Source: Pocillopora damicornis (taxonomy: Eukaryota). From it: a DNA stretch of 64,000 bases. Numbering within the stretch: the first letter of the stretch is position 1; each line of letters starts with the position of its first letter. Below the pieces are notes generated by a model. That model searched no databases, was not told the origin of the DNA, and saw only the letters and a list, made by a program, of their open reading frames with translations. The position numbers and the translations under genes are program-made. Location of the stretch: NCBI RefSeq assembly GCF_003704095.1, contig NW_020846747.1, positions 372,001 to 436,000 of the forward strand, written 5' to 3'. Below, piece after piece: positions 24,244 to 52,411 of this stretch.

Positions 24244-27200
24244 TTACGACTCGTTGTATTTTTGCATCCAGAGCCGAAAGAGTTTCTTGGTCTTGTACAT
24301 TTGCCATCCTTTGAGCAAGCGACGGCGCACGAGCGTGAGCTGGTACCAAGCCATAAAAACCTATTAGGTGAAAAACAGTACATAAGTGACCTGCTTTTCT
24401 ACTTGAAGCAAAAACATTACGAACATGGTAGACATTCTTAGGTACTTTAAATGAGATGTTATTATGTTAAGGAATAATTTCTATTTTTCTTAAGCTCCTG
24501 AATCTCGAACTTGGACCGAGTCTTGACAATCTATTGCTGTTATTCTAGCCAGGATATCTCGGCTCCTAAGATATCTGGAACCCCCGGAAAGCTCTTCATA
24601 CGTCTAGTATCTGTTGCGCCCCCCTACCCCCACCCCGTATCTTGGGTCCCTCGACGGGCATTTCGAACTTCCCTGTATTCTAAATTCTCGACATCTCGGT
24701 CGCCCGGTTATCCCTAGCCCCCTGGAAGCACAATTTTTTCTCTTTCTCTTTCCCATTTACAAATCAAGTTCCCCACCTCTTTTGAAACCTCAGTACCAAT
24801 ACGAATACCAACACCAATAATTTTCTCTTAGCCCTATGAGATTGAAGATGACGCCTCCTCTTACCTCAGATAGCTGCTTTTTGTCTTCATGCTTCATCAT
24901 CATTTCCGACACTCTTTTCCTTATCAACTGGTGACGCCATTTCGTCCAAAACTTTTCAAATACACGGCGATCAACCTAAAAATAAATAAATAAATAAAAA
25001 TGATCAGATACTGAAAAACGACATGAATAGTATGCACTCTCCAGAGACGAACGAAAATATTGGAATTCAAGTTGTTCCTTCTTGCGTCTCCTAAGATTAA
25101 AGGTCTTCAGTGACAACTAGTACAATCCAAGTATGCGTCCCCTCAACTCTGCGACGCTTAGTGCAATACAGTTTCTGAGTCTCACCATTTCAGTGGCGAT
25201 CGAGTTCAAGTCAATTCTCTTCTTCCACATCATGAAGTGCTTCGCTACAATGCGTTCTTCCTTCTTTCTGCTGTGTATCTCAAGTTTTGTGTCATGAAAC
25301 CAGGCGCGGAAACACATTTTGCTGAAAGGAACAAATGACAGTGTGAGAAATGAATCAGCCTTTGTTCACAGACAAATGATCCAACATGCGAAACGAAGGG
25401 AAACGCAAATTTTCCACCTATTACCGCAAACTAAGGCTTTTTGGAACACCCGGGAACCGTACGTCAGTTTACGTCACCCAGTAGAGATGGAGGTAACTCA
25501 GAGCGTTAGGTTGCAATCTTGGTAAAAAGACACGCGTGTCCTTTCTGAATAGAATACACAAGTCCAGCGAATGTTAAGGTATAGAGAAACTTGTGAATAT
25601 TGACCAAGAACACTAAACAATAGCCGCGGCCAGGGCTCAAGTCTGTACACCTGACCTTATGGAATAAACCCAACTATCGCAGACTCCCTCTTGGACAAGA
25701 AAGATGGACCTTGGACCTCTCCCGCTAAGGAGAGCTGACCTGTTTTTTCGTTTGATTATAGTTATTACCTCAACCTTTTCTGGTAATGTTCGTCAGCGAT
25801 TTCCTCTTGTTGCTGCAACGAAATAAATTCACATGATTTGGAAGCCGATTTGGAACCAAATGTGACGCTGTTTAAAGTAACTCTAATCGAAAACCACGTG
25901 AAAGGCTGATGTTGTAAACGCCTCATATTTTCACTCTAAACGTACTTAACTAACCAAGTGCGGGGTGCGAAATGTACGTTGTGACTGATAAATGGGGAAA
26001 ACGAACATCCGTAACTTAAAAAACCGACTGAGAAAACAAGATTAGTAAAATATTTATTTTTTCACCACTATCACCCGACGGGTAGATTGAACAATCAGAA
26101 GGCGAAAACAATGCTGCCGAAAATGTAGGGTTTCAGTGTAGAATTACCTTAGCTTTTTCTTTTTCTGCCTGCTTCAGTTCTGTCTTTGCCTTCCAGTCGG
26201 CAAAAAACTGTACCAAATAAAATACAGAAAAAGAACTGTGGTCAGTGCAATTGGAACAAAAGACGATTCTATCAGTAGGTCAGGTAAGGTAATATAACGG
26301 GACATCACAATTAACAACGCATCTCGACTGAACGTCGAAGACCAAAGTTATCACAACAGCCAATCAGAGCGAAGGAAAATGTTACAAGGAGCCAATGAGA
26401 ACTCAGAGTGAAAACAAGCAAACTGCCCAAAGCGCGGGAAAACGCGGGTGACCAAGTCGTGATTGTTTTTAGTTTTGCATTTGATTGGTTGAGAGGGTGT
26501 CACGAGTTTTCTGGACCAATCACAGGGCGAAGTAAAGCAAAACCACTGCAATTCGACATTGACAGCTGAAGGTTGCTGTATAGACTGTAACAAATCCATA
26601 CCTTAGAAGTGACTGTCTTGTTACAATGTTTCTCTGCGCGGCTCTTCAGTGTAAATTTTTTCCATTCCTGCATACAGCCCCGTTTCACTCGTCTGTTGTG
26701 ATGAATCATCTGTCCGTCTGTCAGCTCCTTGTGCTTGCGGGCGACTTTAAGCGCCTCGTGCCAATCATAGAACAGGCGAGAAACCTGGAAAAAGTTTAAT
26801 AACAGAGAAAAATAATATAATTGTGCTGCAAAAGGCCTACCCTTCTTTAGAGGAATTTGGAAATAGCGTTTTCATGCTGGAAGCGGAGAAAACAAGTTTC
26901 TGGCGTTTTCGAAAAGCTTCCCATTCACAATAAAAGACGGGGTCAACGTTTCCAAATTAATACATGAAGTAGAGCGTTTACCAAAACTAAGCTTGTAGAC
27001 AGTTTATGCGGATGAGTGTCAACGGTTGGTCTACTTGTAGGAATGAAGTTTCGTTTTCAAATTTCTTCGCCTCGGTGAATACAAGGCTTCAGTTCAAGTG
27101 CCCACAAAGGTTACTGTCGCACTTATCCCAAGAACGTTTTTCTTCCGATCGTATTTGCTGTTCTTCCACAACAGGACAAAATTAGGCAACATCTCGGTTG

Positions 27201-30200
27201 AAACTGAACTAACTATTATTGGCTAGGAAATTGTTTACTACCCATAATCAGTTTCAGGATGTTTTTGAGAACTCTTGCGGCGTCAACGCAAAGTTGTATT
27301 TTTTTTTCAGAAAGAAAGAGGCGCTTCGGAAATCGTCGTAACAAACCTTTTTATTCATTGTCTGGTCTCGAAAAGAATTAATTTTCTTCCGTTCATTTAT
27401 CTTCTTTCTTGAAAATTGGTGCCATTCTGCCAGTGATCTGCAAATCAAACACACAATTTGTTTAATTAAAGCGTTGTTCAACAGTTGAAGCGTGTTGTAC
27501 AACATGATGCCTTACGCATCGCTAACATTTGAAGTTCGTTCGTTATTCTATCGCCTCGGACTGAAAATTGTCTGTTTTGTCTTTGGACCAAGTTTGAATC
27601 TAGGTACGTGAGTGGAGTAGCAGTAAAAACGCAATTTTTAGTCGTCACAAACCTCTTCAATACTGTGCGGTTGTGCAAATCCTTTGCTTGTTGCATCTGC
27701 CGCGTTTTTTCCGTCCACTGCACAAAGTATAAATGTACCAAACGTCGGCCGTGTTTTGTCTGAAGATCGTTCGCCATCTCCGCTTGTTTCTTCACCTCTG
27801 TGAACGGAAAACTCGCAATCAGTACAGCGGCTAAAAAAAGTAATTTTCAACTGAATGTCGCAAAACGAAAACCAAAGTAAAGAAAAATTTAAAACAGAAA
27901 CCAGCCAAAATTCATGATAAAACTAGCAAACTGCCCGAAGGACAGAAATACGTGAGAAATCAAGTCACTATTGTTTTTAAAACAGTTTTAATTGAGTGTC
28001 GAAAAATAAAAACCAGTATAGTCCCAACGACTACTAACATCATGATTACCCAATGATAAACTCAAAGTAAAAACAGGCAACCTGCTTAAAGCGCGGGAAA
28101 ACGCAAGTGACCATGTTGGGATTAATTTTAGTTTTCCATTTGATTGGATGAAATGGTGGCGCCAGTTTTATGGACCAATCACAGAGCGAAGTAAAGCAAA
28201 ACAAAAGCAAACTTGGATTACTTGCGACACTCGATTGGTTGAGAGAGAAGGCGCGCGTTTTCTTGACCAATCACAGCAGTGAAATAAGAAAGACGAAATC
28301 ACAGAAAACGTGCGACACTTAACAAAAAATTGCTTTAGGATGACCAATAAACACCGTTTACTCACTAATCGTCCATTGTTTCCAGTGTCGACCAGCTTCT
28401 CGGGTTTTTCTGATAAGCATTTTCTGCAAGTTGTAAGGTCAAAAAGACATATCAGCAACTCTCTCTCGTACATTGAGACCGAGAAAAACTGCCATTGCAA
28501 ATGTGCTTTGGTATCAGTGACAAAGCACAGGTCGAACGATCTCTCTCTCTGGACAGTGAGCCATGTTTTCCACATAATCTCTCACCCTTCAACCACAACT
28601 TTCAGATATGTAATTTTACATCCAGCAAAGCTCCCAAAGAAAAAGCGAGACGACAAAAAAACTTTCCCGCTCCAATCTTTTTCTTCTGCTTTCCTTACAC
28701 ATTTGAGACATTTACCTCTTGAAGTTTTTCAGAGCCCTTCTTGGTGTACAACGCAAGCCACCATCTTGTGAAACACTGACGGAAAAAAGAAAGGCATAAC
28801 TGTGATTAAAAACACTTCTATTTAAAAATATCATTAAAAAAAATAACAACATTTGGTATTTAATGTTTTAAACCTCAGTTTACAGTACTGTGTTTGAGCG
28901 ATGTACGGCTAAGGCCATAAACATTTTACAAAATTCAATATTAATTCCACAATTTTTCCAAATCACTATTTTCATTTTCTAAGCTGAAGGTCAAGATTAA
29001 GATTACACGACCAGCTGTAAACCGGCAGATGTCGAGGATTTAACTCTCGAACTTCCAAAAATGATGAATATGTAACTTCTCCCTATAATATCTATACATT
29101 AAACACCTAACAGGTAATGAGAGTACTCAAACTTATCAGGCAGAGGTTGTTATCTTGATCTAACGCCAAATTATTATAACTAATTTAGAAGAAAATGTGT
29201 AGCAGTTTTAGGGCAGAACAAACAATCAGATCTTGGGAAAAATTTCCAACCGCATCAATAAACTGCTTCGACATAGGTACTTTACGTAAATTGATTCACT
29301 CAGTCATTAAGCAACCGTTAACACTTATAACTAATTCCAAAATAAGTTCATTTTGTTCAAAACTTAAGCTTTTCCTTATTTTGTATAGTTTTCTAAGCCT
29401 TTGAAATTAGTGTCGCATTATTGTGGATGAACTAAGCCACATTTCAACTTTGTAAACTGACCTTGTGTACGATTTTTTTCTCGTAAGATTTTTCCGCTTT
29501 ACACCGCAGCATGAATTTCACCCACTTTACAAGACAATAGTGAAGTAACTCTGACTCTTTTCTCTGAAGATGCTCCTCTAAGACCTCCAGGTTTCTCATA
29601 TTGCGTTGGAATCTTTCTCTCCAAGTCTTGAAGGACTTAGATACCTAGAAGCGAAAAATAAAATGACGAAAATAAATTAATAAAAAAAAAGTCTTTACAT
29701 TTGAACTTGAGGTCGCGAAAACTGTCGTACTTTCTTACACTTATGGTACACATAAATTTATCTTCTCGCAGTCAAAATCCAATAAAATGCTTTGTTTTCA
29801 TCGCAATTAAACCTTCATTGATAAGTCGTTCGATAATAAAGTGCTAATCACTGAGTCCTAACAACACTAAGGAACTAATACAACAGAATAATGCGTGAAA
29901 AACGATAATTGAATAACAGTTTTTGGTTGTAAAAAATAAAGTTTAATCACGATGAAATAGCAACGTTTTTCCCGCAAGTGAAACCTTCCGAGCGGTATTC
30001 ACGAGTCCGAATATAACTGACCACGAAGAAACTTCGGAAGGTACTCGTTACCTCCGAAGCAGCTATTAAGATCGACGAGAAATTATCAAATGCATTCGCG
30101 ATTATCTCAGCACGGTGTTACACTTACCAATTCTTCTTCCTTGTTTTGCAGTATTTCCTGTAAGATTTTTCGTTTCTCGACTCGTGATTGCACATACTGA

Positions 30201-33200
30201 TGCAATCCGAGCAAAGTTCTATTGAAAGAAAAGAATCACATTCTTTAGCAAAAATACATTCAACTCCATCTGCTCAACACAAGTAAAGGAAATCTTTCAT
30301 GCTCTCTCAACTCCAAATTCCCATCAGTCAGCTTTAAGGTAAAGTCTGTTCTCGTAACAACTGGCCCATCCAACCGGAGCTTATTCCGGTTCCCTTAGGA
30401 TGAAAAGACAAGGAGAATTACGTTGCAAGGTTAGATGGATCTTTCCTGCAACAAAATCAGTTTCACTTTGAAAACTGAATGAGAAGCACTATTCCTCACG
30501 CGATGCTAAGCATTAAGCTACCGCGTCTTCCACTAAATTCCCATCAGTACCTTCTGATCATCTTTCCACTCGCATGACTCTTTGCTTTTTGTACTTTATG
30601 AGCTTCCTGCACCCAGTTATCAAACATACGCCGTAACAACTTCTTCTCCGACCCTTCGGCGATGTGCATGGCTCTGTTGTTCAATACTTTAGCTTCTGTA
30701 AGAAAAGAAAAAAGAAAGCGACTAAAGCTTTGCCCACACGTAACCTATATGTTTTAAAATGCAGATTTGTTGACGACTTTAGCTGGCAGGCACGTTAAGG
30801 ATCATTTTCGTAAACAGCTTCTAAAGTGGGTAAGCTTGAAAAAGCGTCAAGTGAAGTTTGCATGTCATGTATCATGTGTGATGTGTGATAAATTTTGTGT
30901 GATTTGTGATAAGTTTTGTGTGATTTGTGATAAGTTTTGTGTGATGTGTGATGAGTTTTGTGTGTGTATGGTGGCTTTGCGTTTTGTAGAATGTGTCATT
31001 TTCGTAAACAGCTTATAAAGTGGTTCAGCTTGGAAAAGCATAGTTTATTCTTTGACAAAGAGACGATAAACCTAACATACCGAATGATTCTCACACTTAT
31101 TGTTCTAAACAAAAAACTACCTGGAGTTAAATTTATCCGAATATGGTGTACTTTTAGCGGGGCTGTGCTCTAGTAGAGCCTGGCTACTACGGGAGACAAA
31201 CGTTAGTCTTTGGGCGGAAAGTTTACCAGTAACCCAATTATATTTTTCTTGTTCGCGTCCAAACTGTCGAGCGGTGGCCATCATTGAATACATTTACATA
31301 CAAACATTTCCCCGTACCTTCTGTAATACTTTTCCAACTGTGGATAAGACGGCGTGTCTATAAAAGAAAAAATAAAATTACAGCCTAATAAAAGTGTTTA
31401 TATTTGAAAAGAATGGGAAAGTTCTTGTTTGGCACTTGTAAAAACTTCAATTGCAACACATTACAATCACTCTGACGAAAGGCTAACGCTCTGACTAAAT
31501 ATCAGCTTTAGAAACTCTTTACGGTGGGCAATTTACATTATAACTCTGTTGATGAAACCAAGTTGTTGAATATCCCCTACCAATGTAGCAATTATTTAAT
31601 TAGGAACTTACCCCTTTATTCATTTATGTTTATTTCTTCCACACTACGAAATTTCTGTGCCATATTTTGTTCAAAATTTAAGCAGAATTGTTATCAGTTA
31701 AATCATTTACATCCATTCAATGCGATTCAATGCTCTTTTTCGTCTTGCCGCTGTTATGTAGCTTCACTGATCTGACCGCCGTTGGCTTCTCAGGAAATAC
31801 AACTTAACACTCCTTTTTTATCCATTTTTAGTTACTTTCAGAGCCATGAAAAATACAAAGAACGTAACTCACGGTTTTTCGGGACGTGTATTCGTCGTAC
31901 CAACACAGGAACATCTGAGAGATAATGTGCATACAAAAGTTCACCAACACGAGAGTTGAAATCGAAATTCTGAGAAAAAAGTAATGTAAAACATGCGCCA
32001 CAAACGGTGTAACGCGAGGGAATAATTTTAAGCTTCTCAATGTAAGGAAGCAACTCAGAACAACTTGACTTTTCGTTCCCGACGATTCCGAAAAATAACG
32101 TTAAAACGAAGATTTAAACATGGAGAAATTTTGGGCAAAACATGCCATGGGAAAGTTGTGTTTTAAACATAAAAGAGAAGCCTTAAAAGAATTATTTAAC
32201 CACCTACCAAGCACTCTAAGGAGTGAATCGCAATTCTAACCCGAGGCAGCTAAATATACAGGCAGCTAATGACGATGATTAAATCAAATTGTGTTGCGTC
32301 AAAATTAATTATAACACTAACTTAAGCTACTCCAAATAAATCATTTATCGACAGTCTAGCCACGGGTAACAAAAAAAAAATCCGTCAATTTGAAGCTTAA
32401 TAAACGATAGCTGTGACAGAAAGAAAAAGAGAGCGAAATTTACTGCCAAAGTGTAACAGAGAGAAGCAGTTTGTATTCAGCTTGGACGAACGAGAGTAAA
32501 CAAATTTAGGAGGATTAATTAAATTTTCTGGACGCGTGAAATAATTCTTATTAAAACTAGCAAAAGTCACTCTCACTAATTAATTACGATGCACAAGATA
32601 AATTTCATGTTTGACTTTTCGCTTTCAAATCATTATTACTGAGTGTTTCTCGCTGATTAAAACTCGCGGAATATTCACTTTTTGAAGTAAATTAATTTGG
32701 TTAAAAAAAAAAAAAAACTTGTGAAAACGTCAAAATTACGCAAATCCTGGAGCTGAAAAATTATAACTTTCAAAACATAAAAGATTTTAGAGACAAAGTT
32801 ATTTGCTTACGACAGTGGTATAGGGAGGCACTTTGGTACACACAGTCAGACAAGAGTATTTTGAACCACGTGGTACATATGGCCGGATTGGCATCCAAGA
32901 TGATTGGTTCATTAGTACCACGTGGTTTAAAATATTCTTCCCCTATTGTCTGTGCTCCACCGTGCCCTCGTATACTTCAATCGATGTGGGTTTTTGAAAG
33001 GCCGGTGGACATCTATATCGCTTTTCAAGCTACCGTTCATACCTGTTTTTGCAACGCCATGATGTAGAACTTGTCTGCTCGGATTTCCAGCGTGTAATTC
33101 CTCCAATCCTCGAAACATTCCCGAAGTGCATTGTGATCACGCTGTTGATTGTGCGCCCGCGATAACTCTGAGTGGGCCAGAAGTTGTTGCCAGAAACGGA

Positions 33201-36200
33201 AGCTTCGAGCAAGCTGAGAAACCATGGGAAATAACATAGAATGTCAGAATTCAAAGAGTTACTCAGCCTGTCGACTGATCAATCAGTTGGCGAGTCAGTC
33301 AGTTGGTCAGTCAAAATGTCAGAGTCAATCATTCATTACGCTACTTCGAAAACACCATAGCACAATCACGCAAGCTTGGCCTTATATAGGCATAGCGATT
33401 CAAATCCCAGTTGTCAGAGTGGTACATCAGAATTCGGCGTACAAACATGCCTAAAAGCTACATGCTAGCATTCCGTACGGCTGATAAATCCTGAAAAGAA
33501 TCAGGAATACTAGCGATAGGGAATGGGAAGTAAGTCATTGAAATTTTAACTCGCAGAACCTAGTCGGTCGATCAGTCAGTACGTCAATCAGTCAATCAGT
33601 CTGTCCGTAGGTCAGTCGGTCAGTCAGTTAGTCATTCAGTCAGGCAGAGGGTCGACTGGATTGGTCAATCAGTCAGTTGGTCGGAAACCAGCCAGCCTGC
33701 CAGACATTCCGTCAAATAACCAATCAATAATTCACTGATTCGATCAATAGATTTATCAATCAATCAGTTATATCTGGCAGTCACTCATTCAAAGTGAGCG
33801 TAATCTTGTGACACAAAGCAAACTGATCTTTTCTAGGAATAGCGTCATTTACCAAGTTTGCGCCAACGTTTTTCTTGAACTCTTGCATCGCTCGTTTGTT
33901 TCTTGTCCTTTCCAGAGCCACATCCCTCCATCCGACAAACACACTGTAAATACAACCGCAAACCATCAGTACTAACTTGAGGAAATTACCCTACAGCTGT
34001 TTAGGATAAGTTTAGAATTACCTTCTGACTAAAACGGCTTAATAAAAAAACACATCTACGTTTAACTTAATATTAACAAATGCTTTACTGTAATTGATGA
34101 CAGTGCTTTAAGAAACATGATATTTCACTAAAGCCAGCCCTTGAATACACGCAGTATCAGAAATTCTAAAAATTTGACAAACGCCAAGCGTTTTATCAAG
34201 AAAATACAGTAATTTTTGCCTACCATTTCAATATATGTAATTCGTGTGTTCTCTTGGCTATCTGAAGCTGTTGAGCGCCTGTCAACCAGTTGATAAAAAT
34301 CTCTCTTGTGATTTTCAATTCCACAGAGCGACGAAAAAGACGAGATTGTTTCCTCCGCGTGTTCATACCTAACAAGCAGCAAAAAGAAAAGAAATTAAAC
34401 TGCCCTACGTGCGTTTATCAGAGTAACGAATTAGTAACACACAGTTTTAAATCTCTTCAGATTCTGCAACAGACTCACGAGCTGTTTAAACTGTAGAGTT
34501 TATAAGTTCGATTCTATAGCCCGTCAGTATCCGATCGACAATCGAAAGGGTTTTTAAAGCACTTGAGACCCAAAGAAGGTACCTACCATTCGCCCAGTTG
34601 TGCCATACTCGAAGAATTTCTAACAGCCGATCAGCTTCCTTAATCTGCGAGTACAAAACATTAAGATTACGTCAACATTTGTCATGTTTCTGTCTTTCTT
34701 GCATAGGCATTCCGTTATTTATTCAAATCATTAAAACCAAGAAATGCGTTGTTGCACTGACCTCGATAAACTCGTCAACAAGACTGATGGCCTGGAATCG
34801 GGCCTGCCACTCCCTGAATGCCTGCAAGAGAGAACTGGTGGTTACAGATGGCGTGAAGAACAGGCTGAATAATTGTGATTCCTACGACTGAACTTATCTC
34901 TTGCCGTAACGCAGTAGATGGACGTGGTTTCCTCAAATTCGAACTCAAGTGTCAAATCAAACATCTACCAATAGTATTAACACATAATGCAACGTATCAC
35001 ACATCACATTTAACGCTTGAAGCATCGCAAATAAGACATCATACATTTAACAGCAAAACGATTAAAAAATCCTGCATCACAAATCACTCAACAGATTACA
35101 CATCACATACAACGCATCACACAACACATTTATGACATGTCAAACATTTCACAGCACACCCATTACAAATCATGGATCACGCATAAAACAGCACATCGCA
35201 CATCACAAATTACACATCACACTGAAGCACTCTTTTTACCATGGTCAAGAGCCTTCTTTCTCCAAACAGTACCACTTTCTTCCTATTAGAAACACGAGTA
35301 GAGGCAAGGACATGCCAAGCCTTAAAACACCTGTAAGAAAAAAAGAGACAGTTAACACTCATGCCACCACTTTCAGAAAGTACTAGCTTCTATAAACTTT
35401 TCCCATTATAGAAAGGTTCAGCTTACTTTGGTAGAAGTCTGTCTGTGTATAGTCGCATGGCGTCTTGACTCTTTCTTGTCATCTGCACCCAATAAGTGAA
35501 AGTCTGCCGCACAAATCTGTCGTTCTGCTTCTTCTGAATGACCTGAGTGAAGCCTTTGTCTTTCTCGGTCACTATAAATGAAGAAGAAAGGGAAAGACTT
35601 TGTAAGATATTTGTCCCACGCCCTAAACAAAGGTTTCAACATCTTCATCTCTTTGTTCGACATTGCTGATGCAAGCAATATGTAGCAACACAGTGGTCAA
35701 ACAGCTGAGCATAAGGGAACTTGGTGATGTGCTTTCAGGCTGTCAGGACCAAGCTGTCTCACACGAGTTACAAACAACCACAGAAACTAGTAAGTCACAG
35801 TGTTTTAAACGCATATAACTTTTTTGGCAAAGCTCAGAACAGAATGGTAAATCAACAGGATATTCTTTTTATCATCACCTTAAGAAATAAATAGAAAACA
35901 CTTTAGAGAATGTGCAAACTGATGTTAAGTGTGTAAGGAGGTTAACGATCTGCAAAACCTGGAACTCTGCTCAGCACTTACCAATAGCCTTCTTCTGCCA
36001 CTGTCCGATTAGCTCTTGTAGCTTCTTCTTAGCGGNNNNNNNNNNNNNNNNNNNNNNNNNNNNNNNNNNNNNNNNNNNNNNNNNNNNNNNNNNNNNNNNN
36101 NNNNNNNNNNNNNNNNNNNNNNNNNNNNNNNNNNNNNNNNNNNNNNNNNNNNNNNNNNNNNNNNNNNNNNNNNNNNNNNNNNNNNNNNNNNACAGAAGAG

Positions 36201-39200
36201 CAAGGTCTTTTAAACGTCATAGCAAATCGCCTTTCATTAAGATAATTTCTTGGCTAATTCTTTGCTACAACGGACAAATAACAACGGGGCACGAATGAAC
36301 ATGGAACGAAGATGGTTAACCCTTCAAGAAGAAATCAAGATGCAACATCTCCATGCAATTCCAGTGTGTTATCTCGAAAACAGATCATGAGAACAAACAA
36401 GCTCATCGGTTTAAGGGAGTTACCTTGAAATGAGACCAAAGTCTCTTGTCTAATTTACAAGGAAATATATGGCAGTCATAAGAAAGAATTTATCACTGGA
36501 TTCTAGGGGATAAAGGGCTTAGGATGGCGAAGATTAACAGGGATCGGAAAAATTAGGAAATTCCATTAATCTGAACAACTTATCCTGACGCACCTTTTTC
36601 TTCCACTTCTGAAAGCCACCCTTGAGCCTTGAGAGCCTGCAGTGATCATCAGCCAGCATCTTCCTTTCCTCTTGGATCCTCTTTGTGACAGCGTACTCGT
36701 GCCAGATCCTCAGGTATTTGAGACGGCTTGTGTCAAGCTGTAGCAAGAGAAAGATGGACTTCATTCCTGCGGCTAAATTGATCGAATGGATTTGGGATTT
36801 TGGCAAAATGCTGCGGCGAGTTGAACGCATGCACCTTCTTCAAGGGCGACCACGGCACTTAAAAACGTTTAAGAACACTTCTCGACTGAGTGTCGTAAAT
36901 CCAAAACCAAAGTTATCGCAACAGCCAATCAGAGGAACAGAGAAAGACTTTAAGAGCCAATAAAGCGCGGGAAAACGCGGGCGACCAAGTCGTGATCGGT
37001 GTTAACTTTGCATCTGATTGGTTAAGAGGGTAACGCGAGTTTTCAGAAGCAATCACAGAGCGAAGAGAAACAAACTAAAGTAATCTCGGATGACCATATT
37101 CGACCCGGATTACATTTGACTTATGACCCAGCTAAGGCTTCAACTTGAAGCGTTTGCCTGAAGCTAAGTGCAATAACCACTCGTGACCTCGTCTCTCACT
37201 TGGAAGAGGGAATTTTGTAAATATCTCTATTTTATGGCGTCCTTAGAGAATTTCACTCATACAAAAGCTGGTGTTTGCAACGAAATTATATAACCTTGTA
37301 TAAAAGGCAATTTTTTCTCTTGTAATAACAACATACAAACAACAACAAAAACAACCTACCCAGTGTTGCCTTGCAGTGACTTTCGTATACAGCTCTCTTC
37401 TCCATTTTCCCAAAGTTTTCGACATCAGTTCTGTTGTCTTGTTGTTTGTGATGTAGTTCAAAAGCTCCTTTTGTAGTTTTCTTTGGCGGGTAAATTTTAG
37501 CCACGTTCTAAAAGTCAGACTCAGAGGCAGGTTCCTCCAGTGCAGTATAGTCTCTGTGGCCATCACCTCACGATCACGTGGTTCACTTTGTGTGCTACGC
37601 CCGGTGAAGGACGTACATGAAGCAGTGCTCATACCGTCATAGTCCTAAGGAAAGAAATATCACGATCAAAATTCTCTCCAGGGGGTTTTATTTACTTTCT
37701 TTGCCATTGATGAAGAGAAAACAATGTATGACCACACGTCGTAATTACTCTTAGGTCAAGATGGCTGGGTGTAAGTTTGAATTCGAACCCATTTTAGCTT
37801 TACATAATGCATTTAAGAGGAGACTGATTCCTAGACTAAATAAGGTAGAGGAGCAAGATTGAGGAGTCACCTGTACATGACACATTATACGAAACGCATA
37901 ACACATCATACAACACAGAAAACACATCACACAAAACTTATCACACATCACACAAATCACACATGATACATCACATGCAAACTTTAGTTTGTGACCAAAC
38001 CTCACAATTATTGTTCCCGATATCTAATTAGTATCTTCAAATGATGTAGATAAGTGAAAAAAAATTTCCAACTTGTATACGAGACCGGTCATACCACTAG
38101 GCGATAAAATGTGACCAATACAGAAATATGAACAACATGTCTCCCTTCTAAACATGCTTACCATGTCCCTCCCCACCCCACCCCACACCTGAACGCCACT
38201 TACCTCATGATCCGTCTCGCTGCTTCCAGAGTGAATGCCTGTATCGTCCTCAGACTTCACAGGAGAAAAGTCCTCCAGTCTAATGGGTGGAGTTGATGGG
38301 AGGGGATGCTCAGGACTGGGGGAAGGAGAGGGGGAGGGGACGGGACTGGTGTGACTTGAATTGAACGCCAAGGGGGACATGGGGCGAGAATCTCTCAGGA
38401 TAGATATAGGGGAAATGGGTCGAACAATGGGACTCTCTGGCCTCAAAAGCTGGTCTATGCCATCGATTCTTCCTGGCAGTGAGGCCGTCTGAAAATAATT
38501 TAAAAAATATCATTGACCCCATGCCGTTTTAAGTTTTCAGGCCCACACGAAACCTCCGTGAATTCACTTTCAAATAAACGCTACTAAGCAGTAATTTCAT
38601 GTGGAACTTCTTCTATTTTTTTAATTGTGCAGCACTAGGTTCTAGCTTTTCAGTCTGTGGATGAAAAAACCCTGGTGTGTGATCATATAATCAAGAGCTT
38701 CTGAGCAGTGCTTTTAAATGGTACTCTCTGTTATGCTGCAAAAAAAAAGGACTGTACAACCACTCAAATGAAGCCACCGAACAGGAAAAGATTTTTGTAT
38801 AAACCCATATTATTCTAGGACAAAGCCTTAGTACTAAAGGCAGCCTATCGTTATTCCATTGTTTTCTTCATCCAAGAACTGTACGCATAATGAAGTATTG
38901 GACTGCGCAGAAATCTGACCCTGAGCAGTTATCTTATCTGGTATTAAAAAGCCATTCTAACGCATCAGACTGTGGAGCAAACCCTTAAGTGTGATCGTTT
39001 TGCTGAAGGCTACTGTGCTCGTCTCTCGTTTAGTATTGTTTATCACGCTAACGAATTTTAACTTTCCATTCTGTAAACAAAATCTTTGTAAGAACCATTC
39101 AGGTGAAAGCTTAAGAACCGCTATTCCATGAGGAATTGAAAACTATGCTGTTTAACAGTGATCCTAACTTCAAACGACGAAATCTAACTGAGTGATCACT

Positions 39201-42200
39201 CAAATATGAGCAGTATGCATCACTGTCAGTATCTGAACAACTGCACAACCACCCCTCCCCTAACCAACATTAAGTTGTTATCCGTTGACTATTATTGGGT
39301 TAGGGGAGGGGTGGGTGCACAGTTGTTGTTATACTTACATCATCGTCCCTCTCCTTGAGAGCTAACCCAAATGTAAACACGGTACCAGATCCCCTCCGAA
39401 TGGAGGCGCCATACCCTGAGGAAGTAAGGGCGTCAGACACAGTGGAGCCAAGAGTCGAGCCTAAGGTTGAACCTAACGGCTGGCGAAAAGAAGGGGAGAA
39501 CGATCCAAAGGAAGAATCCAAGCCGGACACTGAGGTAGCAAACTTTTGCATCTCCACTTGTAGGATCTCTTTAGTAATACGGTGCCATGCTTGAAACATA
39601 CTCCGCAGAAAGGCGTCCTTCTTTGTAAGAGCGTGATCTCTGTTTAGAGAGTAGCAAAAATGGCCAAGTTAATCCTTTGTAACTTTTAAGCCAAAATAAA
39701 ATTTCTTACAAAAGACCTTGCCAACGGAGGATTAAAATGCTCATTTGACAGATTCAGGTTTTAACTTATGGACTAAAATTGGACTCACCCAACATTTCGT
39801 CATCACACTTCCCCTCATAATATTTTTCTCACCTTGCCCATTCCTCCACACGGTAACGTCTCAGCCAAACTGCCCATGCTTTCCTCGTAACTGTGTTCCT
39901 GTATAGATCATCCGCAATTTCTTCTTGCCTCAAGCGATACGCTCTCTGACGGTCAGCGGATGCTCTCCAAAATCTAAAGGACCATTTGACCAATAGCAAA
40001 CCTCGAGCCTGTAATTCACACAAAACGAAATTGAAGCTTCCTCCATTTTCTTGATAATTTTATACTTTGAGTCTCACGACAACATTTTTATTAAATCTTA
40101 AAAGCTTCGCGGGCTAGGAAAAAAACCCTACCTCCTTTCCAATCTCCTCGACCTTCTCCTCAGCTCTATGTTGAACTTTTTCTTTCCATAAAGAGTAGAA
40201 CTTCTCCATTAGTTCAAATCGTCGCGCGCGTATTTTCAGCTTGGCGTATCGCTGATCTTTTATGTAACCTGTAAATTCACAATTTAAAGGGTACACATGT
40301 AAGTGACGCAAATAACGGATAAAATCCTTCAGTAAAATCTATAGGCTTTTTGCGTGACTCGTCGGTCGACCTCACCTCTCCAAGCAGCAAAAGCTCTTGA
40401 CATTTTATTCCGAAGCAGCGTCTCGTTTACTTCTGTTTCTTTAACACGAAGATAAGCCCGATCTCTGTGGCAAAACGAGAAGAAGAAAATTCATACAAAA
40501 ATTTAAAGAAACAACTAAAACAGAACAAAAAGTTAACCATAGCTAAAAACTCCGACAACTGCTGTTGGTGGATTATTCTGCTTCCGATTCGATTCTTAAC
40601 CTCTACCACTCCCTTGATCTAAATATCAGTCGTGTTACATGAGAGCGCACTCGTTTTCGGCTGATCAGAAACGCGTAATTTTTTTCATGTGCATAATTAA
40701 AAAGGGACCTGGTTTTTAGAGGAGCGATTGAGTCTTAGGAGTGAATGGTTTCAAGGTGCTATATGAATTGCTTTTTCTGCGACTGTCACAGACAAAATTA
40801 GCTTATACGAGAAGGAAAGCTAATGTTGGTTCATGAGACAGAAATAAAACAAATAAAATAATTGGATATAAACCATTACCTCCAAAACAGGAAGTATTTG
40901 TCAAGTATCTTTTCTGTCGCTCTTGTCTTCTGATCAACAATATTTTTCAGGCGATGTACGTGAAGTCTCCAAGCATCAAAAACCCTGAAATCATATTTAA
41001 CTAAACCGTTCACAACCTAACATCAGAATCCATATTCTCCCTACTCTTTCAATACATTCTCTTTGGTACTGACAAGGAGAAATTGTTTAACCATCAAAGT
41101 GTTTTTAAGTTGGCGATCATTTCCTTTATTCTCATGACGTAATGAATGATTCAGCAGTATTACTGTGAGGAGAAATTAGATGCTGGTCAATCTTAAGGTT
41201 TAAAGGATACTATGCTATTCATTTGACTTGTAAACGGAGCGAAGCAACGAACCCGAAAAGAAATTCAACGTGTTAAAATATACCAAGAGGATTGTTGAAC
41301 TGTGAAGTGATAGTGGGTTCAAACGCCGGAGCCAAAAGTAGATGTAATATTCTTCCTGTAACTTCCACGCAAAATAATATTCCAGCGTAGAAGTTACTGA
41401 AGAAATGTTACAAATGCTTTTGGTATAAATCAACCAAATTCAGATTTTATGGTAGGTCATGTTTCCAATATGTAAAAACGATTGATCGACTTCTAAACAT
41501 CAGAAATGAGAGATAAAAACATAAAATGATGGGAACTAAGGACACAATAAAAATACTCAAACAATAAACAAAAAATTAGATGTAGCCACTACGGTAGGTG
41601 GAATTCTTGATCAAAAGTTGTTAAAGCACATTTACAAAAAGCAAAGTCTGGGCAGGAAATTCATAGCAAATACTTATAGCCATGCGGTATTATTCATTCT
41701 TTGGAAATAATTTCCACAATTTGGGAGATTGATATTTTCAATTCCAAAGTTAAAATTAGCATCAAGAGGGTTTCAACTATCCACATTGCTTTCCCACAAG
41801 GCATTGGGTGGGGGGAGACTTAAAACCCGCTTCCCACCCCACACCCCCCGCTTTGATCTTGACTTGGCTTTCTCAAACTCAATGCTGTACCTGGCCATTT
41901 CTTTCCTCTCTCTCCGAGCTACCATGGGTGAAATGATTTGTTGTTCCTGATTAACAACTCTCCACGCCTGAAGGACACGAGCTTTGAAGTTCTTTGTCAA
42001 GATAGCTCTTGCTCTGAAGACCTTTTCATTCTCTGCATCAACTTTTCTCTTCTGCAGTTTCCAGGTCCTAAAAATTCCTAAAGACGGGATAGTTGAAATC
42101 AGGTACCCGAAGAAAAACAAAAAACAGAGAGACAAAGACGACAAACATAAAACACAACAAAACTCTAGTGGGCCACTCTCTAATTAATCTCCTCTCTTAT

Positions 42201-45200
42201 AAGCCCCCTCTCGAAAAAGCCCCCGCTCTAAAAAAACCACCCTCTCTGCTAAGCCCTCTTCTGTACCAGGCCCTTCTCTCTTACCTCCTCCCTCCCACGT
42301 CCTTTCAATATTCTGTCTTTGTTTGAGAACGCTTTCCTAAACTTACTTTTCATCATCAATAGTTGCCAGATATCGCGATTCACCATCAGTCTTTGCTCCA
42401 AGTACTTCTTCTTTAAAAGAAGTTTCCAAGCTTCACATGCTTTCCTGTAGCAAAGAAGTTAAAGACATTTTGTTGAGACTTCGTTGATATTTTGTGGATG
42501 CAATTAAACCAGCACTACAGGGCCAAAGAGATCTTTATAAATCACGTAAGGGAAGTCCCATTTTAAAGTGGACAATATTTCCACGCGTTTTTCTTATTTT
42601 CAATGAACTAAAAAAGAACTTCATGAAACATCAGATCTACTTGAGGCCCTTCGAAAGAGAAACTTCACCACTCCCGGGTCAGTTTTTGCCCAACTTCAGA
42701 CAAACCCTACCTGAAGTCCATGAACTGCAACGAAATAGTGCAGATTACTTTCCCGCAGTCTCTGTGATTTGTTTACAAATTCTATATATATTATTAACCA
42801 ACCAGGAACAAAAATTAAACCATGCGCGTCTTGGTCGAGAGTTTTTACGCGTTTTCCTGCGCTTTGAGCTCTGAAGCCTGCATACTGTCAGTTTTCATTA
42901 ATTCTCAACATTTTCCTTCTCTCTGAAACATTTTATGTCCTCAAACCTTTAATTTGCGAAGAACTACCAAGTAGTTGCCACTTACTTTGTACACCGCTTG
43001 GACCAATTAACTCTCGCTTTCTTTCTGAAGTTAGCCACCTTCATGGCAAACAACCAGCGATCCATCATTTTTCGCGAAGCGATGTGATTCTTCTTCTGGA
43101 TCAACTGAATTTCTTTGCTCCTGCATGTAAAGACAAAACACGTGTCAAAGCTTTGAGAATTCTAAGCCGCCGTGAGTCCTTTGCAAACTCTTATTCTATC
43201 GCGCAACTCAAAAGAAATCAGTTTTCAGTATTTGCAAATGGTTCTAAATTACAGCTGTAATTTAACGCTACCAGTGGATCATGCACCGAGATTTTGCAAG
43301 AAAAGAGTTTTGCCAAAGAAAAGCGATCAGGCCTCTCGACTCAGGCTCTTGCACGCCAACAGTTAGGCCATTTCACTACATGTAACAACAACTCAAGAGT
43401 CACCCAGGATCTACCTACTCACCTGAGAGCTTTGTTCTCTTTCACGTGTTGTTTCCAGTTATTTAACATGCTGCTGACAAGCATCCGTTCTAAGGAACCA
43501 ACAAAGGCTCTTCTCCTCTCCCTTTGCTGTTTGGTAAAATTTGACCATCTGTTGAAGAACCTGCGCTTTTTCCCCTGAAAGAAGAGCCACAAGGTTTCAA
43601 TTGTTGTGTAACCACAATGATTTCACCTTGATGAGAAGACTCTCACTCTCTCTCTCTCTCGATCATTTCATTCGCAAGTAGCAAACACGCGGTCTTTGAA
43701 AAAGTTTACACTCGTCATGAGATGGTAAAAACATCCGTGCAGAATATTGAATATAGAAAAAAACATTTCAGCCTTCGAAAATTTGAAAGAGAGTAGTTCG
43801 TGCAGATGTGCAAAAACTGGAGCTCCCAGTTCATAGCCATATATATAAACACCACCAAATGTCCAAATGGGAAAAAATTTAAATAGAATGACTCGTCTAC
43901 GGCAAGTTTGTTCTGTACCACAACTTATACCGATTTCCTCCGGAGAAATTCTTAAAAGCGTGTCGAGCACAATGCGAAATGGCATTCGTTTTTCTTTACT
44001 CTGTTCTGTCTTAAAATAACTCGCACGCGGCAACCTCCTAAACCAATCAGATTCATAACTAAAACCAACTGCGACTACATGTGGATCACTCGCGTTTTCT
44101 TACGCTTCAGGCGGTTTGGTTGTTTTCACTGGCTTTGTTCGAATTGGTTCCCTATGTTTTTTCCTTCGTCCCGAATGACCATTTTTATCAAATTAGTATT
44201 TATTTTACGACACCAGAGTTATCAGCAGTGTTACATTAAATTCATAATTCAGGCTAGTTCTGAATCTTAACCCTGTAAATGACACTTCAAAAAAAAAAAA
44301 AAATTCAAAACGAATCCTTAGAACAATACGTCTTCCCAAATCACCTCTCTTCATACCTTTTTGGCCAAGGCCTTGCACAGATGTCGATGAATAACCTTCC
44401 TCCTGTACCGCAAAAACCACAACTTGAATATCTTCCTGAAGATGAAGAAAAAAAATTTGAAAGCATTAGACTGCATCACGGACGGTAAGAATCATTTCAT
44501 CGTTCTTAAACTGAATCAGCCTTCTCCGCCTCTGAAAGTTTCAAATCAAGAGTGAAACTTTCAACTAAGCGTCGGAAGTAATTCTGCATTGCACTGATTA
44601 AACTTTATTTTGCTATTTAATTGTTAAAAAAAAAACCCCACGCTACCCTTTCGACCAATGAAGGTCCAAACTAAACCCAGTCACTCGTGTTTCCCGCGCT
44701 TGAAGCAGTTTGTTTGTCGTTACGCTGAATTCTCATTGGCTACTTGTGATATTTGCCGTTGTTCTGTTTGGCTGTAGCGATTACTTTACTTTTGGTTTTA
44801 TGCCATGCAGTCATAGGTTGAGCACAAACAAAAAGCCCATCGTTCTCTAGTCTCGGTTTACCTCTGAAGTCCGTTTCTGTAACGCCTATCCGCCTGCCGG
44901 TTCATTAGCCGGATTTTCCAGTGATGAAAAGATTGCTTGACCAACTTGTGACGATGATATTCCTTGCACATGCTCTGGAACCTCAGCCGAATAATCCTGT
45001 GAGGACACAGAATAACGACAAAATCAATACCAGACCTGCAGATTTTTAGTTAATGAATTTTTTCTAGGCAATTTATACAGTTGTAACTTTGCACGGTTTT
45101 AAGAGAATAACTACATGCAGATCGTGCAATTTCTGGAGTGAAAAGTACAGGCGCCTAAAAGGTTTTTTAAACTTCAGCTTTTTCGATCGTTAACAACTAT

Positions 45201-48200
45201 TAACACAATTTGTAATCAAGCGTCGAGAGGATTTCATTAGTTTTGCTTTTTTATACTCTTTGATTGGTCCAGAAAACTGACGTTGGCCTCTCGACCACTC
45301 AATGAAATGCAGAGCTACAACCAATTGCGTCATGGCCACTCTTGTTTTCCCGCGCTTACGAATTCTACGTATAATTGGCTCCTTGTAATGCTCATCTTTG
45401 TTCTGATCGGTCACTGTAATTGCTTAAGCTATGGTTTTGCCGAACACAAGCGAAAAGCGCTAAAAGATTGTCCATACAGTTGGCTTTGCACCTACTCTTC
45501 AATTGCTCTACTCTTCAATCGCCCTTCAATCGCTCTAATACGAAGATGTTGCCGGTTTTTTTCGGCTGCGCATTTTTACGGAGTTTGTTTAACTTACTTG
45601 GCATACTGAGTCCAGTTCTTCCAACAATAGAAAGCTTTTACAAGTACGCGTTTCCTAGAAAAATGAAAAAAATATAATATAATTTACACAAATGATACTG
45701 ATGAAACAAACAAAGCAGAAAAGAAAAAGTACCAAACAAGCTAAAAAAGGTTGAAATGTACTTCTCAATCAATTTGGGAAAAACAAAGACGAAAAACATT
45801 GCCAAACCCCATTCTATCTTTACCACTGCTCTGTTCCACAAAAAAATTCCTTTCACAGAGATCACTTTTTTAAAATGAGTGTCAAACGAAATCCGGAATA
45901 ACCCGTGTTTTGTTTTACTTCGCTCTGTCATTGGTCCAGAAGACTCGCGCCAATCTCTCAACCAATCAGATGCAAAACTAAAACCAATCACGACTTGGTC
46001 GCCCGCGTTTTCCCGCGCTTTGGGCGATTTGGCTGTCTTTACTTTGACCTCATTGGCTATTAAAGGTATTTTTAACCTTTCTTCTGATTTGCCCTTGTGA
46101 TTACTTTGGTTTTGGCTCTGAGACACTCAGTGGAAAGGCGTTCTAATCTCATAACTGCAAGAGTAAAATGATTCTACACGCAACTTACGATTTCAAACTA
46201 TCTGCGACAACTGCTTTGCCCGTGTTTTCCTTCCAAAGGGTAAATAATCTGGCCTGTAAATGTTCTTCATAGTGTACTCTGAGAAGTGAACACACAAGAA
46301 CCAAGTTCGTTACATTATAAAGTATCGCACATAAAATAACAATTGTTCAGTGTACAATAAGAGAACAGTAAGGAGAACTTGCACTCTGATGTTAGGGTGT
46401 AAACGAGGTTTCTGTGACTATTAAGGCGTAACCGTATAATAAATCCCTTCTTTTTGGCAAAGTCCGTTGCGCGAGTTAAAAATAGGTCAACGAAGAAAAC
46501 AAATTGACACTGGCGCGCCGCGCGGAACCCTGTGAGTGAGGCGCATTACTCCCGGAGTTCCGCGCAGTGCGATAACTTTTTTTCGCGGATGTTACCTTCC
46601 TTATTTTTTATTTGCGCGACGGCCCTCGCCGAAAAGGAGTGACTGTTTGTCGTCTAGTAAGGCATCTGACCCCGAAATAGAAATGCCCCGGAAGGTTTTA
46701 GATTTTAATTGTATCAGATTCGCTCAGACCTTTTCTTTTCTTTGTTCTTCTCTGGTAAAAAATATTTACCGTCTCTTTCTATTCCATTAATCTGCGCTTT
46801 TCCATCACTAATATAAGTTTTAAGTCTACTTTGAAAATTGATAGTTCTCAAATCCTTGTTAGGCCATCCTTTAAAAACTATGCTTTCGTTTTCTTTTAGT
46901 TCACCTGGCAACTTCTTTCAATCTTGTTTTAACCACTCTCTGTGAAGCGTACAATCTCCAGCTGTGCCAGCTCCTTGTCAGTAAACCGATTCTGGTCAGA
47001 AAAAACAGTCCTTGAAAGTTAATCCTGATGTGTTTGAACTTGTGAGAACTGTGAGCATTTGAAAATGTGCTTAAACGAGATCCCGAAAACGACGAAAATG
47101 TAGTTTGAATTTCCCAGTTAATACGAAGTAAATCTTCTTCAGCTAATTCCATTTCCCGGTGTAAATATTGATTTGCTTGAGTAATGACCAGAATTAAACA
47201 AATTATTGTTCAAATTACAAAAGTAGTGAATTTCGCCAGAAGGTTCAGCAAGCCACAAGCGCGTTCACTCGAAACATTTTGGATCATCGCATTGAACATG
47301 CGAATGTTAAATTTAAGACTTCTTTTTCGTCTTTTTCAATTCAGAATGCTTGAAGTAGTATAGAACACAAATCAGATCTTTGTTCTTGTTCAAAAGGAAC
47401 CGTGCCTCGTGTGTTAATTACGTGTTATGAATTTTTTCACAGCCCCAACAAATACGATTATCATTATATTGCTAAATTCGTTGATAACACCTGTTGCATA
47501 TCAAACATGCTCATAAACTAAGAATCTCTGATCATAATTCGCCAATTTTGATAAATTAGGCACTTTTAGGAAACACAGTTAAAAACTGAAGGCATTTTGG
47601 TGGTCTAGATTTCTTTGTTCTTAACTTTCTTACTCATAAATTTCAAAACGTATACATTAAAATAATGTACGCAAGACAAAATTGCCAAAAGTACTGTGCA
47701 GTTGGACAGGACACTAAATCGTTGAAATCCATCTGGAAATTTTTAATTCATATGATAAGCTGATTTATACATGCATTCTGATTAGTTCTTACTTACAATA
47801 TATCGGAGGACAGAGGAAGCATGCAAGCATAGATGACGACATACAAAACAAATAGATTAATATTTCTGTGGTTTTGAGCGGTAATAGAATCACAGTGGAC
47901 GTCAAAATGTGGTCAGAATGAAGTGACACACCTTGCTGCGCTTCATGTGCCACTTTTTTTTCTTACCAAAATTTGACGTCAACTGTGTTCAATTACTAAA
48001 CAGACGCATTGTAACATGGAATCTATTTATTAATTAGCTAATAAGTACAGAATTTTTGTACAATAAACAGCGGAAACTTGAACCATACTTGTAGTGTAAG
48101 GAAGCAACTCCATTCTTCTGCTCCATATCACACTTTATCTTCCATTTAATATAATTTCTCGATAATATGTGCCTGTCAGCCATCTGTTCCATCATTGCGC

Positions 48201-51200: not shown

Positions 51201-52375
51201 ATGTCCTTCCTTGGGTCTGCTGTTTATCAACTGCTCATTTCCATCTTCTTTACCAGAAGAATACGATTTGCTTAGTTTATCAGTGCCCTTAACAGAATTT
51301 GCGAATGAAACCGATTTAGGAGAATGCTCTTTCTTGAATGTACTTCCTGGAACAACCTTCTGCTTTTCCCTCCTAATCAGGGCATCCCTTGATCGTTGCA
51401 TAAATTTATTTGCAAGTATTTCCTGAGAACTGGAACCTCCTGAATAGCTTCCATTCGATGGGTAACTCCTCTTAAGTCTTTCCAAATAGCTGGCATTTTC
51501 ACTTTTATCAACGCCACCATGACCATTTCGCCCTGTTTTGTGCACAGAAACCTCGGATGGAACAACAAGAATGTCTGGGTGGCCTTTCATTGAAGCTTTA
51601 CTCGACAAACTTGAAGAATTGGGGTTAGTAACATGTGCATCCTGGCCTCTATTCTGTTGAAGCCCTTCAAATCTAGTCTCTCTTCTGTGTTTACTATTAA
51701 GCATCAAGTCAGAATGTCTGTAAAATAAACTTCCATCAAATGCTTTGGTTGAGGTGATCACATCCTGAACACCACTTGTGGTACTGATTCCACTTGCTGT
51801 ACTCTCTGAAGTTTGATTACCGTTCTGAGGCGCAGTCTCTTGTGACAGTAGTTGATTTACTGAGTCTTCCATTGCCAAGCTGAATGGATTGCCAACCTCA
51901 GTGTCTAGCAATGTGTGCACTCGATGAGCTGAAGAAGTGCAAACAAAAAGAAGGCATTGTAACACGTAGCAGAGCAAGTCTTCACCGAACCCAAGAGGGT
52001 CAGCCACCAGTGACAGACACTATTCCTGTCTCTGTACCATCAAGCTACCAAGAGTATTGCTACATTGGCCCCTGCATTTTGTCAGGCTTCCAAGAAAGAT
52101 CACTGCTTAGCATTTTATCATCCAACTGCGCTAAGTAGGGTATAAAAAACGCGCGAATCGAGTACAAATATCCTGCGTTATTTTGTACTGTAAAAATAAA
52201 CTGTTTCACCGGTCGGCTGCGGGTTTTGCTTCTCTATCTGCTTCGCTTTACCCACTTTTTAAGAAATGCTCATGAAATAAAGTAATTGGATAATAAATAA
52301 CTTAGTACATGTTTTGGTGTGTAGCATCGCTGACTATTAAGTTTTTACTCAGTGTATTTTGACGTGCCCTATGGA

Positions 52376-52411
<36 letters not shown>

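Follow-up and report, generated by a model that had tools for sequence, protein, structure and literature searches.

Architecture of the Sfi1-Repeat Gene

The window analysed here is a 64,000-nucleotide (nt) stretch of Pocillopora damicornis DNA (contig NW_020846747.1, positions 372,001 to 436,000), which carries on its minus strand a gene for a protein with tryptophan (Trp)-anchored Sfi1 repeats (24244..58117). The gene model comprises 50 exons and ~2,406 codons, from an ATG at 58117 to a stop that ends at 24244. It is an open spliced frame with AG and GT exon ends; RNA joints were checked downstream of 36030 only, and the exons upstream of that position were placed by homology (tblastn with the Montipora protein P0008 and the Stylophora protein P0009), not by RNA. 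It shares 87% identity with Stylophora pistillata XP_022798775.1 and 66% with Montipora P0008.

The frame encodes a low-complexity N-terminal region, a first block of Sfi1 repeats, a Ser/Pro-rich linker of ~200 amino acids (aa), and a second block of 887 aa with ~31 Trp anchors and two prolines. This second block carries an exon cassette. With a single exon of the cassette gene as the query, genome G000 gave one match, the window itself. A first-pass annotation, made by a model from the sequence letters, had proposed Sfi1 repeats, and the assignment held: the transcript-derived protein P0002 scored 71.5 bits against Pfam Sfi1 (PF08457; cut-off 22), six of six long relatives were above the cut-off, and most invertebrate members reached 50–160 bits.

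Exon Cassette and Splicing

A splice-site scan combined with translation gave five classes of minus-strand exon, namely a (60 nt), b (58 nt), c (145 nt), d (91 nt), and e (183 nt), with individual members listed in Table 1. The intron phases before a, b, c, d, and e are 0, 0, 1, 2, and 0 in all units, and all exon lengths and phases listed in the first-pass annotation were recovered. Cassette donors are all GT and readable acceptors all AG. Among the 48 internal exon lengths of the gene, identical ordered runs of two, three, and four lengths numbered 12, 6, and 2, values reached in none of 50,000 shuffles.

All 18 introns between the 19 exons at 26148–36039 were seen as joints in RNA-derived contigs. 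The RNA evidence consists of contigs (6 of 23 runs, from 6 studies, one run flagged 'probably DNA'), from which rare isoforms would escape. Thirteen introns came from one 4-run set, among the matches listed, and the remaining five from a second 4-run set of 11 rows, in which two non-canonical joint rows fall inside introns. No alternative splicing of cassette exons occurred among these 11 listed joints; contigs drop rare forms, so its absence is not established.

The irregularities of the first and third units were likewise recovered. Unit 1 lacks the symmetric e exon, its 91-nt exon d1 being spliced directly to the 60-nt exon a2 in four of four runs, and unit 3 has shortened a and b exons of 42 and 40 nt. 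At the opening of unit 1, the predicted ~58-nt exon exists; a separate 60-nt exon in the sequence gap before it does not appear in the P0002 transcript, because P0002 splices a 144-nt exon (36737–36594) straight to the 58-nt b1. The a-type repeat of this unit is located at the end of that 144-nt exon. P0002 is 91% identical to the gene model, gapless over the last 917 aa. The cassette gene is expressed, and the feature is real and very old.

A Six-Repeat Unit in the Protein

A full unit encodes six Trp-anchored Sfi1 repeats with gaps of 25 (a), 29 (b), 33 (c), 26 (d), 33 (x), and 33 (y) residues, 179 aa in all. Unit 1 lacks x and y, y is 29 in unit 2, and b is 17 in unit 3, which leaves the units of the gene unequal at about 118, 175, 167, and 179 aa. 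The annotation had described them as very divergent, in agreement with pairwise identities of 19–26%, yet they match in register. A hidden Markov model (HMM) of unit 4 aligned in register to units 2, 3, and 1 with 79, 72, and 37 bits; as controls, block 1 gave at most 22 bits, and three unrelated Sfi1-repeat proteins, two of them fungal, at most 42 bits. This profile-level similarity supports an ancient intragenic block duplication as part of the history of the units, as the annotation had suggested.

Repeats at the same position of different units were more alike than others with the consensus positions masked (p = 1e-4). Across 16 non-vertebrate proteins, same-class likeness gave p = 3e-4, also with labels shuffled only within the long, short, and b spacing groups, and the nearest neighbours were of the same class for 18 of the 22 repeats. 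A lag of 179 aa was the top autocorrelation peak in the three hexacoral proteins inspected (Montipora, Actinia, and Nematostella). At the 26 block-2 anchors of the window model, Trp occupies 25 positions, Phe or Leu stands at −3 in 22, and Ala at −16 in 9; this Ala was found in 8/8 repeats with 25/26 spacing versus 1/18 of the others. Two 17-aa gaps fall outside the 23–35 aa range of the Sfi1 pattern.

Equivalent introns of different units have no DNA likeness beyond a dispersed repeat, and we rejected a recent duplication of units on this ground. As for the order of the duplications, the pairing 1-3/2-4 was obtained in 4,099 of 5,000 bootstraps with 16 proteins and in 1,187 of 5,000 with five proteins, where 1-4/2-3 led. 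An older three-repeat sub-unit was considered and not adopted: a and d, as well as c and y, were mildly alike, and b and x were not.

Conservation in Corals and Other Animals

Ninety-seven pattern matches were obtained in metagenome contigs, five of which were confirmed as genomic loci of relatives. In these five other coral loci, 37 exons were matched, each at the same length, and the projected ends had AG at 36/37 acceptors and GT at 36/36 internal donors. The projected acceptor of e3 is TG, not AG, in L003:115-297, a variant or an assembly error. One locus, L005, likewise has no e1 and shows an e2 of 171 nt and an a3 and b3 of 42 and 40 nt. The comparison of the cassette with other animals proposed in the first-pass annotation thus found identical exon lengths in corals, with spacing kept as far as deuterostomes.

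Protein searches recovered relatives in Actinia, Nematostella, and Lingula, and a profile search returned 249 proteins at an expectation value (E) ≤ 0.001. The best 150 of the 249 were examined and 20 were assigned to organisms, so that gaps in the range (tetrapods, insects, and sponges) are uninformative. The 20 comprised proteins of a hemichordate, amphioxus, four echinoderms, an annelid, four molluscs, and seven fishes, and two fungal Sfi1 proteins. Gene identifiers among the relatives are LOC5513274 (Nematostella), LOC109479999 (Branchiostoma), LOC144451217 (Glandiceps), LOC106151252 (Lingula), and LOC136713933 (Amia). The family ranges over corals, anemones, a hemichordate, amphioxus, echinoderms, an annelid, a brachiopod, molluscs, and fishes.

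We compared the spacing of block 2 in an alignment of 27 proteins with 30 gaps and the coral protein as the reference. Gaps equal to those of the coral were found at 30/30 positions in Actinia and Nematostella, 28/30 in Glandiceps, and 27/30 in Branchiostoma, the latter two at ~23% sequence identity despite their kept gaps; Amia agreed in 16/18 across a2–y4. Losses follow the exon structure in part. The six mollusc-type proteins (four assigned molluscs and two others) all have a 28-aa gap, as predicted by loss of exons a3–d3, which in the coral encode 106 aa from phase 0 to phase 0, and Antedon has a 30-aa gap, which fits the prediction for loss of e3, an event that coral unit 1 shows as well. 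A plain Trp-to-Trp deletion would leave one of the gap lengths already present, 33 in the case of the mollusc junction, and the introns around a3–d3 and e3 are for this reason likely older than the cnidarian–bilaterian split, to judge from these predicted proteins. Other losses run from Trp to Trp, 29 aa in Owenia, Lingula, and molluscs and 58 aa in P0049.

Block 2 spans 574–974 aa across animals with constant local spacing, some of the short forms possibly being gene-model gaps. The Stylophora protein P0009, which lacks most of unit 4, was set aside as a gene-model error, as the RefSeq protein P0014 of the same species and transcript-derived proteins keep that unit. In P0110 (2,538 aa), the gap series a2–d3 is seemingly present twice in a row at residues about 1648–2214; the halves align in register with a weak score of 177, versus 144 for a like comparison in Glandiceps, and a lineage-specific re-duplication of two units is possible. 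P0181 (2,155 aa), apparently an unrelated Trp-repeat protein, has a young, near-identical 117-aa super-repeat (gaps 33-33-39-12, ~13 copies), which suggests that higher-order periods arise more than once.

Relation to Known Repeat Proteins

Sfi1 repeats follow the pattern A-x12-[F/L]-x2-W-[K/R/H] at intervals of 23–35 aa (PMC2173958). Human SFI1 is described as a protein of 1,242 aa whose 23 repeats form one block, include 21 33-mers, and bind centrins directly (PMC2173958), and complete Sfi1 proteins as having 20–24 continuous repeats, mostly 33-mers outside fungi (PMC2063913). The coral protein resembles yeast Sfi1p and human SFI1 in its A-x12-[F/L]-x2-W-[K/R/H] repeats, its low proline content, and its gaps of mostly 25–33 aa. 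In contrast to human SFI1 and the complete Sfi1 proteins, its anchors form two blocks (~24 and ~31) split by the Ser/Pro linker, not one continuous block; 33-residue gaps make up 9/22 in the cassette versus 21/23 in the human protein, and a six-repeat period is present. From this predicted architecture, the protein does not fit a canonical human-type SFI1 orthologue, for which one block and near-uniform spacing of 33 would be expected. Judged by sequence, the gene belongs to a separate animal-wide Sfi1-repeat family, unlike canonical SFI1; the first-pass annotation overlooked both this family and the non-canonical architecture. Searches of genome G000 with PF08457 and P0137 returned no matches, this gene included, and so are uninformative on a separate canonical SFI1.

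Giant ciliate Sfi1-repeat proteins (the Stentor Sfi1 family and Spirostomum GSBP1/2) are likewise large, many-repeat scaffolds, and theirs are described as building centrin fibres (bioRxiv 2025.08.11.669701). The Stentor repeats are a uniform 69 aa (bioRxiv 2025.08.11.669701). The coral protein differs in belonging to animals and in having gaps of mixed length, set in a fixed order by an exon cassette.

Among chordate proteins, look-alikes in the ESM Atlas include a DUF4684 cluster with scores of 0.77 and 0.82 (<0.9), a lead only. DUF4684 (PF15736) is the domain of vertebrate C1orf167. As a candidate, C1orf167 orthology was not retained: PF15736 gave no match (0/6, 0/28, and 0/15 proteins scanned, fish members included).

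The literature covered, from which subscription journals and supplements were left out, neither described this family nor reported a super-repeat for any animal protein with Sfi1 repeats, and no papers were found for six gene or accession identifiers. The term 'sfi1' is absent from the main text of a ciliome preprint (bioRxiv 10.1101/153437), whose supplements, which may bear on location, lay outside this scope. An AlphaFold prediction on alignment A1 was all helix with a mean predicted local distance difference test score (pLDDT) of 44 and a predicted template modelling score (pTM) of 0.17, too poor to be used as evidence.

A Patterned Centrin Fibre as the Favoured Explanation

Centrin fibres link and position basal bodies, and few animal centrin scaffolds have been described. 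We consider it probable that this ~2,400-residue protein, with four diverged five-exon units in block 2, forms a helix with up to six centrins per full unit, as part of a structural fibre at centrioles or basal bodies. What was observed directly is the cassette with its splicing, six Trp anchors spaced 25-29-33-26-33-33, units that match in register, and spacing kept from corals to deuterostomes. An exon block bounded by phase 0 on both sides would have been duplicated before the cnidarian–bilaterian split, and lineages would later have lost symmetric exons (e in unit 1, a3–d3 in molluscs) or single repeats. Each full unit would form a single alpha-helix of ~27 nm, block 2 as a whole reaching ~125 nm, and centrins would wrap each repeat and contact their neighbours, as in yeast Sfi1p.

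In the structural accounts of Sfi1 repeats, centrins wrap around one helix and contact each other, each rotated by about 65 degrees from the last (PMC2173958, PMC2063913). Repeats of 33 and 26 aa turn the helix by 60 and 80 degrees, values close to this centrin-to-centrin angle of 65 degrees (PMC2063913). Four gaps of the cassette fit well in this respect, and the other two, of 25 and 29 (340 and 20 degrees), fit poorly. The 33- and 26-residue gaps may thus fit centrin–centrin contact, while gaps of 25, 29, or 17–21 would force kinks or empty sites, any length other than 33 or 26 needing local unwinding or bending of the helix. Selection would then keep the ordered gap pattern, as a fibre shape or a docking pattern, rather than one total length. 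Distortions of the fibre would lie at fixed places, and its location would most likely be centrioles or basal bodies, where human SFI1 is reported to act (PMC9627676).

Several points weigh against this reading or parts of it. The contact residues are described as partly specific to centrin 3 (PMC2063913), and the packing argument may for that reason not extend to other centrins. Single exons of the window fall below the Pfam cut-off, and sequence searches of the PDB found no solved structure, with one chance match in the linker and none for the profile. Classes b and x show little of the same-class likeness, which in the lophotrochozoan subset is marginal under the strict shuffle (p = 0.019–0.048), and the likeness of a to d may be convergent. 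The 179-aa period of the first-pass annotation, upheld in hexacorals, is not the top peak in Lingula, and among further long proteins it leads in two (Branchiostoma and Diadema); unequal units and deletions partly account for a fixed lag that is blurred outside hexacorals. Finally, the intron positions given for bilaterians derive from gaps in predicted proteins rather than from DNA.

Alternative Explanations

In nebulin and titin, super-repeats superimpose a higher-order period on simple repeats via exon-block duplication. The coral cassette resembles them in that a repeated block of exons encodes the higher-order period, and differs in its unrelated repeat type and in having only four unequal units; we know of no partner lattice with the period of the coral units. 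Nebulin sets thin-filament length (PMC7673738), and in the first-pass annotation strict length conservation suggested a molecular ruler for a centrin-decorated filament. With such a ruler, the number of 179-aa units would set the length of a centrin fibre or place a partner every 24–27 nm. Block 2 is indeed nearly equal (836–842 aa, about 125 nm) in anthozoans, the hemichordate, amphioxus, and a sea urchin. What has been lost elsewhere corresponds to whole repeats or exon sets, and yeast Sfi1p–centrin filaments are described as spanning the half-bridge (PMC2063913). Exon lengths are fixed in corals and local Trp spacing is fixed across animals. However, the total length is not, given the range of block 2 across animals and the repeats or exon sets lost in many lineages, a range that gene-model gaps may in part widen, and the units within the coral gene are themselves unequal. 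A 179-aa unit would also turn an ideal helix by 260 degrees versus 30 degrees for six 65-degree steps, so that units would not present identical faces, and constraints of reading frame and centrin packing would explain the local constancy without a ruler. We regard a ruler as unlikely.

The cassette could be a frozen by-product, in which duplication merely added generic sites and spacing was kept because any insertion or deletion in a coated helix is harmful, the pattern itself being irrelevant. The drift of the units to such low identity fits this idea, as does block 1, where spacing is kept equally well without a cassette: its gap series (e.g., 33-29-29-29-29-32-34) is shared across animals, and it measures 694 aa in Montipora, Actinia, and Lingula. 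Position-specific features present in all units, the Ala at −16 in short gaps and the same-class likeness, speak against it, though shared ancestry can also give these, and we hold it less likely still than the ruler. Least likely of all, and improbable in our estimate, is a helix with a different EF-hand partner (calmodulin or a light chain), or one engaged in a coiled coil, in place of a centrin fibre. The low share of Ala at −16 and the two 17-aa gaps, seemingly too short for two centrins, would suit such a helix, in contrast to the Pfam Sfi1 scores of most invertebrate members and the direct binding of centrins reported for human SFI1 repeats (PMC2173958). The patterned fibre was ranked above these three explanations on the ground that local gaps have stayed constant and total length has not.

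The gene likely encodes an overlooked structural fibre component of animal centrioles or basal bodies. It adds a candidate scaffold of 2,000–3,000 residues, present from corals to fishes and in databases either without a name or loosely labelled 'SFI1'. Between coral and hemichordate its repeat gaps have barely moved, although roughly three of every four residues differ, and it makes testable whether non-33 repeat lengths in Sfi1 proteins are encoded shape or noise. Natural variants exist in molluscs, without one exon set, and in Antedon, without another, and Nematostella is amenable to tagging and knockout. The locus is, moreover, a clear case of an exon cassette that preserves a very old duplication. 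More tentatively, and with clearly less confidence than for the fibre itself, this may be a second, undescribed giant animal centrin scaffold besides SFI1, in which the gap order would be a spacing code derived from an exon-block duplication older than the cnidarian–bilaterian split, programming fibre twists, kinks, or partner docking about every 25 nm, with lineages adjusting their fibre through loss or renewed copying of symmetric exon sets.

Feature Coordinates and Neighbouring Genes

Table 1. Features of the Sfi1-repeat gene, in transcript order, as window positions.
Feature	Position	Strand	Basis or remark
Exons 1–6, low-complexity N-terminal region of ~620 aa, including a 1,414-nt exon (51928–50515)	49936..58117	-	tblastn with P0008/P0009, and model
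Sfi1-repeat block 1, 18 exons, ~695 aa, ~24 Trp anchors	39339..49819	-	no exon cassette; dominant lag 29 aa
Ser/Pro-rich linker, then first block-2 repeats	37360..39639	-	end of 301-nt exon, exon 38488–38204, start of exon 37644–37360
144-nt exon, d-like repeat and a-like repeat of unit 1	36594..36737	-	class similarity; spliced straight to b1 in P0002
b1, 58 nt	35982..36039	-	54 bases readable, 5' end under N; length inferred from relatives
c1, 145 nt	35427..35571	-	
d1, 91 nt	35240..35330	-	without following e exon; same in coral locus L005
a2, 60 nt	34762..34821	-	
b2, 58 nt	34587..34644	-	
c2, 145 nt	34224..34368	-	
d2, 91 nt	33853..33943	-	
e2, 171 nt	33043..33213	-	two repeats; 4 aa shorter than e3/e4
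a3, 42 nt	31873..31914	-	
b3, 40 nt	31318..31357	-	
c3, 145 nt	30551..30695	-	
d3, 91 nt	30128..30218	-	Leu in place of the anchor Trp in stony corals; anemones have Trp
e3, 183 nt	29462..29644	-	
a4, 60 nt	28716..28775	-	
b4, 58 nt	28366..28423	-	
c4, 145 nt	27653..27797	-	
d4, 91 nt	27347..27437	-	
e4, 183 nt	26602..26784	-	
a5, 60 nt	26148..26207	-	opens incomplete fifth unit
Last four exons (44, 136, 111, 117 nt)	24244..25812	-	terminal repeats beyond cassette

A voltage-gated potassium channel gene (BTB_2, Ion_trans) at 20859–22835 on the plus strand lies tail to tail with the Sfi1-repeat gene, and a cupin/JmjC-like gene and a CDK11-like kinase gene occupy 1759–17285 on the minus strand. 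The GenBank Stylophora protein P0009 fuses the cupin/JmjC-like, CDK11-like, and Sfi1-repeat genes as 'CDK11B', and the RefSeq protein P0014 does not. On the far side of the gene, a single-open-reading-frame cytochrome P450 was found at 60920–62452 on the minus strand, with 511 codons from stop to stop.

A short dispersed repeat is present in the introns at 26208–26601, 27798–28365, and 36738–37359, where the three copies are 75–84% alike, and look-alikes occur near 44000–44120, 44660–44800, 45900–46120, and 48890–49110; this repeat attracts many unrelated RNA contigs. Degenerate simple repeats resembling ACATC/ACACAT lie in introns at 34940–35220, 30870–30970, and 37850–37990, one of them in the intron where e1 would lie.

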